Below, piece by piece: positions 51,769 through 55,946 of a stretch of 64,000 bases of DNA (its first letter is position 1; the number at the start of each line of letters is the position of its first letter). Where the stretch lies: NCBI RefSeq assembly GCF_965204015.1, contig NZ_OZ241965.1:453714-517713 (forward strand), read 5' to 3'. The DNA comes from Candidatus Poriferisocius sp. GTDB taxonomy: Bacteria; Actinomycetota; Acidimicrobiia; Acidimicrobiales; Bin134. The position numbers were made by a program, and so were the translations under genes. A model generated the notes under the pieces. It was not told the DNA's origin, did no database searches, and saw nothing but the letters and a program-made list of their open reading frames with translations.

Positions 51769-52728
51769 CTAGTTGTAATGCCCATAGAGGTTGTGGACGC
51801 GTGAGGCGGGTGTGCCGCCGATGGCGGTGTGGTGGCGGTGGAGATTGTAGTGGTGGATCCAGGTTTGGAGTCGGCGTCGGCGGTCGGGTTCTGATCTGAA
51901 TGTGTAGTTGTAGAGGAACTCGTCTGCGATGGTGTGGTTGAAGCGCTCGGCTTTGCCGTTTGTCTGGGGCCTGTAGGGGCGGGTGAAGGTGTGGTCGATG
52001 GCTTGTCGGGCGAGGTGGGCGGCGAATTTCTTGGACCGGAAGTTCGCCCCGTTGTCGGTGATGATCTCGTCTACGGCCACGCCGATGGAGCGGAACCAGA
52101 TGCGGGCCCGCTCGAAGAAACCGCACAGGGTGTCGGCGGTCTCGTCGTCGAGGGCCTCGACGTAGGCGAGGCGGCTGTGGTCGTCGACGGCGACGTGGAG
52201 GTAGCTGTAGCCGACCCTGGGGCGGCGGCGGGCTCCGCGGGCCGGGGTGTTGGCCCTGCCGTGGGCTCTCCACCCGCCGCCGGGCGGCACCTTGTCGACT
52301 TTTTTGACGTCCAGATGGACCAGGTCGCCCGGATGGGGGCGCTCATAGCGGCGTATCACCTTGCCGGTGGGCCGGTCGATCCAGCTGAGCCGGTTGAGCC
52401 CGTTTCGCACCAGGATCTTGTGCACCGTCGACGCCGGCACCCCCAACCGGGCGCCGATGCGGGCCGGACCCCACCGCTTTTGGCGGCGCAGCCGGCACAC
52501 CCGCTCCTCCACAGCGGCGCAGGTGCGACGAGGCGACCGGCGCGGGCGAGACGACCGGTCCTTGAGCCCGGCCTCGCCGTGGGCCACCCAGCGGCTCCAC
52601 CACTTGGCCACCGTGGACCGCGACAGGCCCATCTGGGCGACCACATGGGCCTGGGGCATCCCGCCCTCGATCCGCTGGACCATCAACAAACGCCCAGCCG
52701 GGGTGAAAGGTGCATTAGCGTGCGACAT
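51769..52728 (-). CDS. IS481-family DDE transposase
   Basis: MSHANA..TP.GR, L.DRSSRP, RYER..PG.L.H.D.KK, VDDHSR, TDNG, YRPQTNGKAERF, YN..R.H. Confidence 0.93.
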   Translation of the reverse strand: MSHANAPFTPAGRLLMVQRIEGGMPQAHVVAQMGLSRSTVAKWWSRWVAHGEAGLKDRSSRPRRSPRRTCAAVEERVCRLRRQKRWGPARIGARLGVPASTVHKILVRNGLNRLSWIDRPTGKVIRRYERPHPGDLVHLDVKKVDKVPPGGGWRAHGRANTPARGARRRPRVGYSYLHVAVDDHSRLAYVEALDDETADTLCGFFERARIWFRSIGVAVDEIITDNGANFRSKKFAAHLARQAIDHTFTRPYRPQTNGKAERFNHTIADEFLYNYTFRSEPDRRRRLQTWIHHYNLHRHHTAIGGTPASRVHNLYGHYN

Positions 52729-52836
52729 CGAGCCTCCCTTGCTCAGTGCGGTAGTACGCAACCACCACACTGGCATCGGAGGCTCACCCAATAGCGGAGC
52801 TACCTGCCCGAGCTAACAACCTCTGTGGACAGAACA
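51774..52836 (-). mobile_element. IS481-family insertion sequence, 1063 bp, 6-bp ACTAGT target duplication
   Basis: Ends TGTaaTGcCCAtAGAGGTTGT and (reverse complement) TGTtcTGtCCAcAGAGGTTGT; actagt at 51768-51773 and 52837-52842. Confidence 0.92.
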
Positions 52837-53048: not shown

Positions 53049-54977
53049 TCAGCGGCCATGCAGCGACCAGTAATAGGCCACGACGACCTCGTTGAACTCC
53101 TGGGCAGTGAGCCTCCCGGCACCGAAGTCGCTGAGCGCCTGGTCGAACTCCGCTTTGTCGATCTTCGCATCGCCGTTGGCGTTATAGCGTGTAGCCGCAC
53201 CCGAGACAACCGGTGTCGGCGTCGGCGTGGGCGTGGGCGTCGGTGTCGGCGTGGGCGTCGGCGTGGGCCTGGTGTTGGAATCTATAGACGTGGGATCGTT
53301 AACTTCTAGCCATTGCCTGATGTTCCAGCAAGCTGCGACCACCAATCCACTCATGGCGGCACCAGTAACCAGAGCAGGCGCTGCTGCAACTCCCGTTGCT
53401 GCCAGCACAGCGGTTACAGCGACTCCCGTAGCCCATTGAGTAGCCTGGTTGCGGCAAATACCTTGCGTTCCAGCCTTAACGGATGCTTTCAGCGCTTGCT
53501 CAAAACCGTTGGTTATTGCAGTTCTGATTTCGCCTCTAATATCAGAACTCTTACCGACTACAATCTTTCCGTTTTCGACCACGTATTCCACACCGCCAAT
53601 AACAACTTTTCCGGCGTTGACGACATGTTCAACACCGTTGACAACAACTTTTGTGACTGTGCCTGCAATGTCTACCGGGGTGGCTTCTTTGAGTTTGGGC
53701 CTATGGCAGTCGTGGGTTTCGTCCTGTTTTTCCCAAACGGCTAGCTCATAGAGCGTGCGGGTAGTTGTTCCCACTGAATTCAAGTCGGTTGTTGTCGCAC
53801 CGGTGGTTATGTGTATCCACATCGGGCTAGGCAACGGCGGAGAGTAGTAGCCAGCTAGGCAAGGGTGGGCATCGTGGGTGGTGGTGCTTTCGTATTCTCC
53901 AGTTCCGACCGTGCGGTATCGAGTTTCGTATTTTGCCTGGGTTCCGTAGACCGGAATTTGCTCGTAGTTGTAGACATCCCTGGTCTTCGTGACGGTGCGG
54001 GTTCTCGTCTCATCACCGTAGACCGGAATTTGCTCGTAGTTGTAGACATCCCTGGTCTTCGTGACGGTGCGGGTTCTCGTCTCATCACCGTAGACCGGAA
54101 TTTGCTCGTAGTTGTAGACATCCCTGGTCTTCGTGACGGTGCGGGTTCTCGTCTCATCACCGTAGACCGGCTGGTTCTCGTAGTTGAAGACTTCTTCGGT
54201 TTTTGTGTAGGGCGGAATCCTGGTTTTCTTGTAGCCGGTGAACCTCTTGGTGACAACATCCTCATACTGCGGAACATTCACATAGTTGAAGGCCGGAACG
54301 TCGACATAGTTGAAAGCCGGGACCATTATGTAGCGCGGATCGACCCGAACCTGGATGCAACCGCCTCCTGGACCGCCAACGCATACTGTCTCATAGTTGA
54401 AGACTTCTTTTGACCTGGTAAAAGGTGCGACCCGCTCTTTTTTGGTGTAGGGCGGGACCCTCACCTGCTTGTTGCCTATGAACCTCTTTGTGACAACATC
54501 CTCATACTGCGGAACATTGACATAGTTGAAAGCCGGAATCGAGATGTACCGCGGGTCAACCCGGACCTGCTGATAACCCACAATCACCTGAACGGTGTAT
54601 TCCTCTTCGTCCTCGTAGGTCTCTGTGAACGGCGCTATCCGGTCGCCGTTCTTGTAACCGGTGACCACCTGAACGGTGTATTCCTCTTCGTCCTCGTAGG
54701 TCTCTGTGAACGGCGCTATCCGGTCGCCGTTCTTGTAACCGGTGATGCCTTGAACGGTGTATTCCTCTTCGTCCTCGTAGGTCTCTGTGAACGGCGCTAT
54801 CCGGTCGCCGTTCTTGTAACCGGTGACCACCCGCTCCTCGCCCACCTTGACCTGGTAGGGCTCCCTCCTTGTGATTTCTGTTCTCGTGGTGGTCGGATCG
54901 TGAGCGCTGGCAGTAGCGGGCAACAATGCTGCCGCAACACAAAACACGGCAAACAGACTGAGAAAACGGCGGGCCAT
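53049..54977 (-). CDS. Secreted repeat protein: signal peptide, beta-rich repeat stalk, low-GC Cys-flanked hydrophobic domain, PT linker, EF-hand/dockerin-like C-terminal module
   Basis: SD aaggagg before ATG 54977; MARRFLSLFAVFCVAAALLPATASA signal peptide; tandem 27-aa and 24-aa repeats; (PT)9; YNANGDAKIDKAE. Confidence 0.8.
   Translation of the reverse strand: MARRFLSLFAVFCVAAALLPATASAHDPTTTRTEITRREPYQVKVGEERVVTGYKNGDRIAPFTETYEDEEEYTVQGITGYKNGDRIAPFTETYEDEEEYTVQVVTGYKNGDRIAPFTETYEDEEEYTVQVIVGYQQVRVDPRYISIPAFNYVNVPQYEDVVTKRFIGNKQVRVPPYTKKERVAPFTRSKEVFNYETVCVGGPGGGCIQVRVDPRYIMVPAFNYVDVPAFNYVNVPQYEDVVTKRFTGYKKTRIPPYTKTEEVFNYENQPVYGDETRTRTVTKTRDVYNYEQIPVYGDETRTRTVTKTRDVYNYEQIPVYGDETRTRTVTKTRDVYNYEQIPVYGTQAKYETRYRTVGTGEYESTTTHDAHPCLAGYYSPPLPSPMWIHITTGATTTDLNSVGTTTRTLYELAVWEKQDETHDCHRPKLKEATPVDIAGTVTKVVVNGVEHVVNAGKVVIGGVEYVVENGKIVVGKSSDIRGEIRTAITNGFEQALKASVKAGTQGICRNQATQWATGVAVTAVLAATGVAAAPALVTGAAMSGLVVAACWNIRQWLEVNDPTSIDSNTRPTPTPTPTPTPTPTPTPTPVVSGAATRYNANGDAKIDKAEFDQALSDFGAGRLTAQEFNEVVVAYYWSLHGR
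53211..53267 (-). repeat. Pro-Thr linker microsatellite
   Basis: ggcgtc/ggcgtg/ggtgtc hexamer run encoding PTPTPT. Confidence 0.85.
53944..54170 (-). repeat. 72-bp perfect tandem repeat x3 (YGDETRTRTVTKTRDVYNYEQIPV)
   Basis: Units begin at 53944, 54016, 54088; partial at 54160. Confidence 0.95.
54585..54831 (-). repeat. 81-bp near-perfect tandem repeat x3 (VVTGYKNGDRIAPFTETYEDEEEYTVQ)
   Basis: tgaacggtgtattcc recurs at 54589, 54670, 54751. Confidence 0.95.
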
Positions 54978-55154
54978 TGGGCGGCCTCCTTCGGGCGGTC
55001 GGGTAATTCCGACTACAGAAACCCGCGGCCAAGCCCGAAGGAGACCAAGGTCAAGCCCAATCCATATCGGAGGGGACGAGCCAATACCCGAGCCGCTAAC
55101 ACGCTTGACCGCAGGGGAAAACCCCACGGGTTTCTGTAGTCGGAGCCAACTCTA
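54976..55154 (-). promoter_or_regulatory. Structured 5' leader (candidate cis-regulatory RNA) with upstream -10 box
   Basis: 21-bp inverted repeat 55008-55028/55124-55144, inner stem 55049-55056/55103-55110, anti-SD 55033-55047 complementary to 54982-54996, TAGAGT -10 at 55149-55154. Confidence 0.65.
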
Positions 55155-55269
55155 TACCTACTTTTGAGGCGTCCGCAAGCGCTGCCAGCCCGATCTCCCC
55201 CAAATAGCTTTGTATAAAGCCGAATAGGTGTTAGGTTGGCTGTATGGCCCCCGCTTGGGAACTCGACTG

Positions 55270-55509
55270 ATGCCCCGCTTGTCGCCGCTCGTGCGCCAGC
55301 AAAGGGCCGAAGCGCTGGCGGCGGTCGCCTCTATAGGCCGCCAGGTCGCTGCCGACACAGAAGCGCTGACAGCCGCCATGAGCCACGCCAACAGCGTCGG
55401 CTGCTCCTGGCACGAGATCGCCCGCCATGCCCCCGTGAACCGGGCTACCGCCCAACGCCGAGTCAAGCGGTGGCAGCAAACCCCCAACACAACCGAAAGG
55501 CAGCCATGA
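55270..55509 (+). CDS. Small helix-turn-helix protein
   Basis: A...G.SWHEIA....VNRATAQRR HTH-like motif; stop overlaps next ATG (ATGA). Confidence 0.6.
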   Translation: MPRLSPLVRQQRAEALAAVASIGRQVAADTEALTAAMSHANSVGCSWHEIARHAPVNRATAQRRVKRWQQTPNTTERQP

Positions 55510-55946
55510 GCCCCCAACCCACAACGCCACACCAAACACCGCCCACGATTGCACCGCCCGCAGGCCGCCGCTTGGTCGTTTTTGCGGCGGTCGTTATAGC
55601 TCTAGGGGGGGCGCTGTTGCCAGTAGCGCCGGAACTGACCATAACCCTTATGGGTCTGCTTGCGGTCTGCTGCCTCGGCTTCTCGGCCCGCTATGCCGTG
55701 TTTTGGCTCAAGCACCGCCCGCTGCCACGCGATTACGACGACAAGGGCAAGCCCAAACCGAACAAAATCGAGGATTTGCTGCTCGTTGTATTTGCGCAAT
55801 TACCACTCTTGGCTTGGGCATTATTGAAGGGTGGTAGCGGGTTGAACGTGTGGTGGCTACTGGCAGTGGCGCTTATGGCACCCTTCTATGCTCTCGGTAA
55901 GTTTGCCCTGTTCCGCTGGTGGCTTCCCCGCAAAATTAGCCGGTGA
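55506..55946 (+). CDS. Hypothetical 4-TM membrane protein
   Basis: Translationally coupled to HTH gene; four hydrophobic segments. Confidence 0.6.
   Translation: MSPQPTTPHQTPPTIAPPAGRRLVVFAAVVIALGGALLPVAPELTITLMGLLAVCCLGFSARYAVFWLKHRPLPRDYDDKGKPKPNKIEDLLLVVFAQLPLLAWALLKGGSGLNVWWLLAVALMAPFYALGKFALFRWWLPRKISR

Follow-up and report, generated by a model that had tools for sequence, protein, structure and literature searches.

A genus-restricted family of messenger RNA leaders with two predicted, covarying folds ahead of genes for putative exported proteins in Acidimicrobiia

The leader and its gene

On the minus strand of a 64,000-nucleotide (nt) stretch of the genome of Candidatus Poriferisocius sp. 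(NCBI RefSeq assembly GCF_965204015.1, contig NZ_OZ241965.1, positions 453,714 to 517,713; this whole stretch is the window, to which positions below refer unless a genome contig is named), a gene for a repeat protein of 642 amino acids (aa) is preceded by a structured mRNA leader, which is the subject of this report. An earlier note, made from the letters of the window, had proposed that two mutually exclusive folds of this leader gate the Shine-Dalgarno sequence (SD), the hiding of which is a known means of translation control. The encoded protein has a signal peptide ending in ASA directly before a His and a hydrophobic C-terminal part; it matched no Pfam family and had no usable match in the Atlas, and a protein-based search for further loci returned 2.

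Read from 5' to 3', the leader consists of the P1 5' strand, P2, the P1b 5' strand, A, a loop, B, the P1b 3' strand, the P1 3' strand, 4 nt, C, D and AUG (Table 1), and leaders of this kind are self-contained, with a size of about 120-200 nt. Two complementary repeats underlie this layout. The longer one, an inverted repeat of 21 nt (55008-55028 with 55124-55144), is 95% complementary with its arms 95 nt apart, and its 18-nt core has 2 occurrences in the window compared with 0.03 expected. The other joins the SD to an anti-SD (54983-54996 with 55033-55046) and is 93% complementary. A 191-nt minus-strand RNA (55160-54970) folds at -94.9 kcal/mol (z = -5.0), a value reached by 0 of 200 shuffles, and the individual duplexes of this copy amount to -31.8 kcal/mol for the 15 base pairs (bp) of B with D and -19.0 kcal/mol for A with C. 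In this copy C begins 4 nt past P1, or 2 nt by the pairing of the duplex prediction.

Several readings of the earlier note hold at the level of the letters: TAGAGT at 55154-55149, GGGG-UUUU-CCCC at 55125-55114, ATG at 54977-54975, and a single mismatch in the long stem, T55126 opposite G55026 on the minus strand, which becomes G-U in RNA. Its 21-bp closing stem needed revision. The repeat exists, but P2 and P1b compete with its inner 4 bp (55124-55127 with 55025-55028), and P1 proper comprises 17 bp (55128-55144 with 55008-55024) because both the family covariation and the minimum free energy (MFE) fold use P1b (55103-55112 with 55025-34) instead. Two smaller elements did not survive comparison, in that relatives do not keep the 8-bp stem GGUCAAGC/GCUUGACC, and the UUCG hairpin is not conserved as a hairpin, the same stretch being conserved as the anti-SD.

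Table 1. Parts of the leader, its promoter elements and the downstream gene, in window coordinates.
Feature	Position	Strand	Basis or remark
Leader of the mRNA for the 642-aa, putatively exported repeat protein	55144-54975	minus	5' of ATG
-35-like box TTGCGG	55173..55178	-	read from the sequence; T conserved in the family
-10 box TAGAGT, TANNNT type	55149..55154	-	conserved across family upstream regions
P1 5' strand, 17 nt	55128..55144	-	DNA repeat reaches 55124; covariation
P2 hairpin GGGG-UUUU-CCCC, branching off the rod	55114..55125	-	fold and covariation
P1b 5' strand	55103..55112	-	partner 55025-55034
A, anti-anti-SD	55085..55096	-	RNAalifold (pairs 52-67 with 142-155), covariation (helix 7), duplex with C
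Variable tip loop, A to B	55048..55084	-	37 nt in this copy; includes AUUGGGC 55055-55061
B, anti-SD	55033..55047	-	15 bp with D; covariation
P1b 3' strand	55025..55034	-	first 2 nt common to B
P1 3' strand	55008..55024	-	inverted repeat, RNAalifold, covariation
C, linker element complementary to A	54995..55005	-	abuts D; all 9 model pairs compensatory
D, extended SD region, core GGAGG 54985-54989	54982..54996	-	repeat with B; covariation
ATG start codon	54975..54977	-	7 nt 3' of SD core
Regulated gene, 642-aa repeat protein	53049..54974	-	no Pfam family

Related leaders are confined to one genus

A covariance model (R1) built from 15 leaders aligned with MAFFT (alignment A1) gave 85 matches within one genus of Acidimicrobiia; they fell in 27 of the 40 genomes scanned, with up to 10 in one genome. 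By BLAST, 11 of 36 other genomes in that genus contained relatives, and 24 genomes from other families contained none. When R1 was run over 151 genomes of the order, the own genome alone matched, and the 148 genomes from 121 other genera yielded 0 matches under stricter filters. A two-motif pattern applied to one genome per species (185,579 species) found 5 loci, all titled as Acidimicrobiia or Acidimicrobiales metagenome-assembled genomes. Covariance scanning against Rfam 15 returned 0 matches at E <= 10 for 54500-55700 and, at the gathering score, 0 matches for 20 loci with family members, in line with the earlier note, which could not match the leader to a known riboswitch; nor did the literature that we searched describe such a motif for this group of Acidimicrobiia. 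We conclude that the leader is a member of an undescribed, genus-restricted RNA family.

The copies are unevenly spread and differ in completeness. Genome G008 contains 10 copies, half of which lie in a 36-kb stretch (C1:2568534-2604447); most of the 10 precede small proteins of 84-104 aa with a start rich in Thr, Pro and Asn and one membrane segment, and the set in genome G062 is similar. The closest relatives of the present leader, L045:1501-1675 (minus strand) and L046:1501-1675 (plus strand) from genomes G019 and G027, share 76% identity over 261 nt and keep the whole leader. At both loci ACG or ACA replaces ATG and the open reading frame (ORF) stops about 100 codons in; the two are probably pseudogenes that retain an intact leader. 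Six shortened copies, each from a different genome (L099, L102, L103, L105, L107 and L120, the last at C1:3011466-3011574 of the own genome) comprise the promoter, the P1 5' strand, P2, P1b, A and a degenerate B, and end where the P1 3' strand is expected to start; four of the six are nearly identical. The possibility that these tail-less copies are stand-alone small RNAs was rejected, the sequence breaking off into other DNA at the P1 3' strand, and we take them for remnants left at a single orthologous site.

The rod covaries as RNA

On a plain MAFFT alignment, RNAalifold predicted a rod made of P1, a branching P2, P1b stacked on P1 and a loosely paired tip in which the G-rich A lies against the 5' flank of B, with 15 of 42 pairs compensatory. 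Alignment of 85 distinct rows to R1 (alignment A2) gave two-sided changes in 38 of the 42 pairs and 662 double-change cells compared with 184 +/- 13 in shuffles, and 90.7% of the rod cells were paired, against 38-50% in a slid control in which the partner was shifted by 1-3 columns. All P1 pairs showed compensatory changes, and the arms have diverged between copies yet stay complementary. The same was true of all 3 model pairs of P2, which certain short family members seem, from the alignment, to do without, and of all 10 pairs of P1b, for which 94.6% of cells were paired. Together, P1 and P1b make up an almost perfect helix of 27-31 bp. Over the outer 12 pairs of P1 the G+C content is 49%, compared with 69% for P1b, 68% for the helix of B with D (B:D) and 65% for the genome; this A/U-richer outer P1 fits a helix meant to open. 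Conserved letters cluster around P1b and the junction, and the invariant ones lie mostly in P1b, B and D.

G-U outnumbers A-C by 415 to 77 in the rod and by 122 to 33 in B:D, from which it follows that the structure has been selected in the sense RNA and not in DNA. This bias speaks directly to the notion of a DNA-level element, be it a miniature inverted-repeat transposable element (MITE), an invertible promoter segment or a recombination site, for which a near-perfect 21-bp inverted repeat around 95 bp and insertion sequence (IS) remnants on both sides of the gene might be cited. We regard that notion as extremely improbable: the ratio of G-U to A-C is 5 to 1 on the sense strand, every copy lies between a promoter and an SD, and the arms are copy-specific and covarying rather than shared. 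A multi-copy MITE, which the earlier note had named as a finding that would refute it, is contradicted by the own genome (4.06 Mb), where the element is single-copy by sequence with three more weak R1 matches, and by relatives that all stand between promoter and start codon. With regard to inversion, the promoter lies outside the repeat and IS remnants alone, with no recombinase, are adjacent; contigs from two runs of one study (X1 and X2), which may derive from the source sample, cover 54802-55500 with no differences, no joints and one orientation, a weak argument as contigs drop rare forms. An integron attC-like site was likewise set aside, the copies being scattered over both strands, each with its own promoter and SD.

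A second set of pairings would hide the Shine-Dalgarno sequence

The alternative pairing of anti-SD with SD put forward in the earlier note is present as a repeat in this copy and covaries across the family. On the plain MAFFT alignment, 95.6% of the B:D cells were paired compared with 42-62% in the slid control, and 7 of 15 pairs showed two-sided changes; on A2, whose model does not contain this helix, there were 102 double-change cells compared with 21.7 +/- 4.9 in shuffles. The helix measures 13-15 bp in the family. An additional pairing from the same source, of AUUGGGC with GCCCAAU over the start codon, fared less well: according to an alignment read by eye, it is kept with two compensatory changes in this copy and its two closest relatives, L024 and L025, but it is not family-wide.

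Comparison of the copies indicates that the linker before the SD forms a fourth covarying pairing with the anti-anti-SD (A:C), newly recognised here, in which A makes Watson-Crick pairs in place of its weak pairing with the 5' flank of B. The A:C duplex of each copy with its own linker averages -13.6 kcal/mol compared with -8.6 kcal/mol for shuffled linkers, and is more than 2 kcal better in 58 of 69 copies; when all linkers are ranked against a given copy, its own comes within the top 10% in 26 of 69 cases for A:C, much as for B:D (29 of 69). On alignment A4, obtained with a second model (R2) built on A:C alone and, being fitted to the helix, leaning towards it, all 9 of 9 pairs carried two-sided changes, with 107 double-change cells compared with 39.4 +/- 5.6 in shuffles and 77% of cells paired compared with 35-52% when slid.

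The junction distances are nearly constant. Median values are 0 nt from C to D, -1 from B to the P1b 3' strand and 6 from the P1b 5' strand to A, and the tether from the P1 3' strand to C has a median of 4 nt (interquartile range 4-5), while the tip loop is free to vary from 2 to 68 nt. Judged by strand direction, P1b, A:C and B:D would form a regular three-way junction in which C and D are one continuous strand. We estimate that this arrangement would be incompatible with a closed rod of ~31 bp, since the 5' end of C, which would sit at the distal end of helix A:C, is tied ~4 nt from the base of P1. A simple pseudoknot combining an intact rod with B:D was rejected on a like estimate, the tether of 4-11 nt being too short to span about 31 bp.

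Both folds of the earlier note, one with the rod formed and the SD free and the other with the anti-SD paired, are thus backed by covariation across 85 related leaders, as that note had suggested homologous leaders might reveal. Sequence comparison supports selection on the two of them, because the rod, the tip pairing A:B, B:D and A:C all covary and the predicted junction of the second fold would, by our estimate, exclude a closed P1.

A metabolite or ion riboswitch, with its aptamer at the junction of P1, P2 and P1b or at the three-way junction of the second fold, would share this logic of SD, anti-SD and anti-anti-SD, and the letters conserved around P1b and the junction could be taken to favour it. 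We nevertheless hold it to be very improbable. There is no Rfam match, the part from A to B ranges over 2-68 nt, P2 is apparently missing in certain members, and the conserved letters sit in helices rather than in a pocket; the downstream genes have export in common and not a pathway. As for an aptamer in the second junction, the strands C and D are made after P1 has closed.

Folding energies and the case against two states

Below, State 1 denotes the rod fold with a free SD and State 2 the fold with B:D and A:C. A number of observations weigh against State 2, and against the switch that it would form part of. In 65 of 69 copies the rod is the nested MFE structure, and folds made to include B:D lie a median of 13.1 kcal/mol higher (range 0-37); the B:D duplex itself has a median of -27 kcal/mol. 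When this copy is folded together with 30 nt of coding sequence, the rod reaches -91.5 compared with -85.8 for the forced B:D. Deletion of the P1 5' strand in silico increased the copies with B:D in the nested MFE from 4 of 69 to 24 of 69; in this copy, none of the 15 B:D pairs is present at full length and all 15 are after the deletion. The other 45 of 69 copies still leave B:D out. State 2 may therefore need a trigger, given that nested thermodynamics put State 1 far ahead; State 2 is pseudoknotted, and the nested programs used cannot score pseudoknots. Furthermore, steric exclusion is our own estimate, and State 2 may not fit tip loops as short as 2-9 nt. The shuffle controls overstate significance, because A2 and A4 are model-fitted and the copies share ancestry. 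Both folds and the start site are predictions, and a scan with the Escherichia coli consensus found 0 promoter sites at the locus, so that the promoter assignment rests on family conservation. Finally, 16 of 81 distinct leaders have no ORF downstream or one of fewer than 60 aa, which together with the two closest relatives that have no normal start codon indicates that some copies are decaying.

These energies would suit a static, always-ON leader whose rod, starting at the inferred 5' end, stabilises the abundant mRNA of an exported protein, with B:D and A:C as unused leftovers. Leftover complementarity, however, would decay, whereas B:D and A:C persist through two-sided changes despite a diverged P1, and the junction distances are fixed. 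We therefore consider a static leader rather improbable.

Promoter and transcript start

Upstream of the leaders runs a shared pattern, TTGC-N18-TANNNT, which ends 7 nt ahead of P1. In 75 distinct upstream regions the -10 box stands at a fixed distance with T in 58, A in 53 and the final T in 70, and in 54 of the 75 the -35-like box, 18 nt 5' of it, has T at the corresponding position. A spacing of ~7 nt from the -10 box is usual for start sites in actinobacteria, and the transcript would accordingly begin at the base of P1, the start site being predicted at about 55141-55143. The stretch between the -10 box and P1 (55142-55148) is C-rich, with C in 52, 55 and 40 of 75 regions at three successive places; this stretch and its family equivalents are G+C-rich and discriminator-like.

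The leader is not coding, since in-frame stops occur in 34 of 50 leaders and the leader lengths are spread across all three residues modulo 3. No terminator-like site was found in 54975-55150, where P1 is followed by GGAAUUACCC and not by the run of U expected after a terminator or attenuator stem. Two further candidates were rejected: a leaderless upstream ORF that would unwind P1, as no start codon was seen at the inferred start sites, and a second promoter within the leader, as no conserved TANNNT was seen inside P1.

Downstream genes and surroundings

An ORF of at least 60 aa follows 65 of 81 distinct leaders, with sizes in the family from about 84 to over 700 aa. A strongly hydrophobic stretch of 15 aa lies within the first 110 residues in 55 of these 65 ORFs, compared with 591 of 2537 (23%) in a crude control of genome ORFs, and the products of these 55 look exported or membrane-bound. 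By eye, the downstream proteins sort into three groups: about 20 are repeat-rich, with a signal peptide ending A-x-A before a His, about 10 are lipoproteins, and others are small, with a Thr/Pro-rich start and a membrane segment. Among ORFs of at least 100 aa, 41 of 52 had no Pfam family, and the rest matched fn3, PT, RCC1, LRV, TM2 and similar families.

About 20 of the leader-linked proteins, including that of 53049-54977 on the minus strand and those at L043, L047, L051, L078, L081 and L089, have a signal peptide with AEAH, ASAH or AQAH. Because the A-x-A cleavage end directly precedes His, the mature proteins would start with His, and it is possible, judging from these termini, that a His N-terminus binds metal in this unannotated family of repeat proteins.

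The gene lies between traces of mobile DNA. Its downstream neighbour (51769-52791, minus strand) is an IS481-type transposase ORF with rve, HTH and LZ_Tnp_IS481 domains, and upstream a divergent 93-aa ORF (55228-55509, plus strand) has a weak match to DUF4096, an IS4/5 transposase N-terminus (E 1.6e-4, below the Pfam cut-off). Within the gene, at 54721-54834, short-read contigs break and the depth is four- to five-fold higher, coinciding with coding tandem repeats of YKNGDRIAPFTETYEDEEEYTVQ units; the assembly may be uncertain as to how many units there are.

A model of the leader as a switch

Taken together, we think it probable, though well short of certain, that the leader is a bistable mRNA element of this genus-restricted family that controls translation initiation. 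The assignment of ON and OFF, and any switching in cells, we infer from the helices and their geometry. In State 1 (ON), P1 would be stacked on P1b with P2 branching and A loosely paired with B, leaving C and D single-stranded for ribosome binding, and the rod would form first, as its strands are transcribed before C and D. In State 2 (OFF), the tail would invade the tip, D pairing with B (13-15 G+C-rich bp) and C with A (8-11 bp), and the SD would be buried. With C held by a tether of about 4 nt to the end of P1, State 2 would require at least the outer, A/U-rich part of P1 to open, and access to the SD would thus depend on the state of P1's 5'-terminal strand.

Among possible triggers, we would place first the opening, capture or removal of the 5' strand or outer P1, by a protein or chaperone, by temperature or by slow relaxation of new RNA. 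A temperature effect, if any, would act on P1 rather than on the SD helix, since the outer P1 alone is A/U-rich; B:D, with its high G+C content and low energy, does not resemble an RNA thermometer of the ROSE or fourU type. Cutting of the rod by RNase III would come second. A small ligand, in third place, is unlikely, because the tip is variable and C and D are made late, leaving no stable pocket before P1 closes. RNase III (PF14622, 123.9 bits), RNase J and RNase E/G are encoded in the own genome, while CsrA and Hfq were each found in 0 of 40 genomes of the genus. Simple nibbling from the 5' end seems disfavoured, as a 5'-terminal hairpin is reported to block RNase J1 (PMC3386247).

These nucleases also open another path, for cutting of both strands by RNase III would part B from C and D and thereby lead to action in trans. 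The rod would then be an RNase III processing site and 5' stabiliser rather than a switch in cis, the cut mRNA losing its anti-SD and being translated or degraded. The excised, very stable rod with A and B would next pair in trans with the C-D tails of sister transcripts from the same gene, or uncut transcripts would pair with one another, so that the complementarity would serve self-targeting. A helix of 27-31 bp is the usual size of an RNase III substrate, and the 17 bp of P1 stacked on the 10 bp of P1b make a helix of at least about two turns, in a genome with the RNase III, RNase J and RNase E/G genes. By our estimate, the tail of an intact rod reaches the tip in trans but not in cis, and A:C is copy-specific. 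The cspA gene of Staphylococcus aureus and the RNase J1-blocking hairpin provide a precedent (PMC3386247). Against this stands the tether from P1 to C, which stays at 4-5 nt in a family whose tip loop ranges over 2-68 nt, a constraint that makes sense in cis and would be needless in trans. We rate processing or trans pairing of this kind as unlikely. A more specific variant, in which the rigid rod keeps the anti-SD from its own SD and the copy-specific A/B tip pairs with the C/D tails of sister transcripts from the same gene, either directly head-to-tail or through an RNase III-excised rod, appears improbable; if true, each exported-protein mRNA would silence itself to a degree set by its own concentration, an RNA-only, gene-specific dosage control across the secretome.

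Relation to known systems and significance

The proposed switch shares features with four kinds of regulatory leader. In the E. coli thiM TPP riboswitch, SD, anti-SD and anti-anti-SD compete and helix closure decides the availability of the anti-SD. The present leader resembles such translational platforms in this three-tier competition, in which the closing of a helix frees or holds the anti-SD, but lacks a recognisable aptamer, an Rfam match and a metabolic regulon; moreover, its deciding helix is a rod of 17-21 bp at the very 5' end, and its OFF state would need A:C within a three-way-junction pseudoknot. Stabiliser hairpins at the 5' terminus also precede genes for abundant exported proteins, as in the ompA, aprE and S-layer gene leaders. 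A paired 5' end ahead of exported-protein genes would be common to both, and P1 begins 7 nt past the final T of the conserved -10 box, the start site being a prediction; those leaders, by contrast, are simple hairpins without a conserved alternative of anti-SD and SD.

Type I toxin mRNAs, among them hok of plasmid R1 and aapA3 of Helicobacter pylori, provide a third comparison. For this class, translation is reported to depend on alternative folds in which hairpins sequester the SD and the 5' end pairs at long range, with refolding after processing or in the course of transcription (PMC6733600). The hiding of the SD, the long-range 5'-end pairing and the setting of translation by refolding would be alike. 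The genes behind the present leaders nevertheless encode a mixture of large exported proteins, small membrane proteins and lipoproteins rather than one family of toxins, and here the loss of the 5' partner strand, not of the 3' end, would refold the leader, towards OFF rather than ON. In S. aureus cspA, RNase III cutting of a long hairpin in the 5' untranslated region is reported to activate the gene (PMC3386247). A long hairpin from +1 whose integrity sets stability and access to the ribosome-binding site would be common to both leaders. In cspA, however, cutting relieves inhibition, whereas here the intact rod would free the SD and a separate, covarying anti-SD is present; the two have no sequence relation.

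The combination of a long rod at the 5' end, a short tether and a tail whose sequence complements each arm of the rod tip is an architecture that we found neither in Rfam nor in the literature searched, and it is because the tail matches both arms that two elaborate folds are each kept by covariation. Being small and self-contained, the leader could serve as a designable switch. We know of no regulator in this group of uncultured Acidimicrobiia. In a single genome as many as 10 genes carry the leader, nearly all of them for apparently exported, lipid-anchored or membrane proteins whose function is unassigned, a pattern that points to a common control of the cell surface at the post-transcriptional level.

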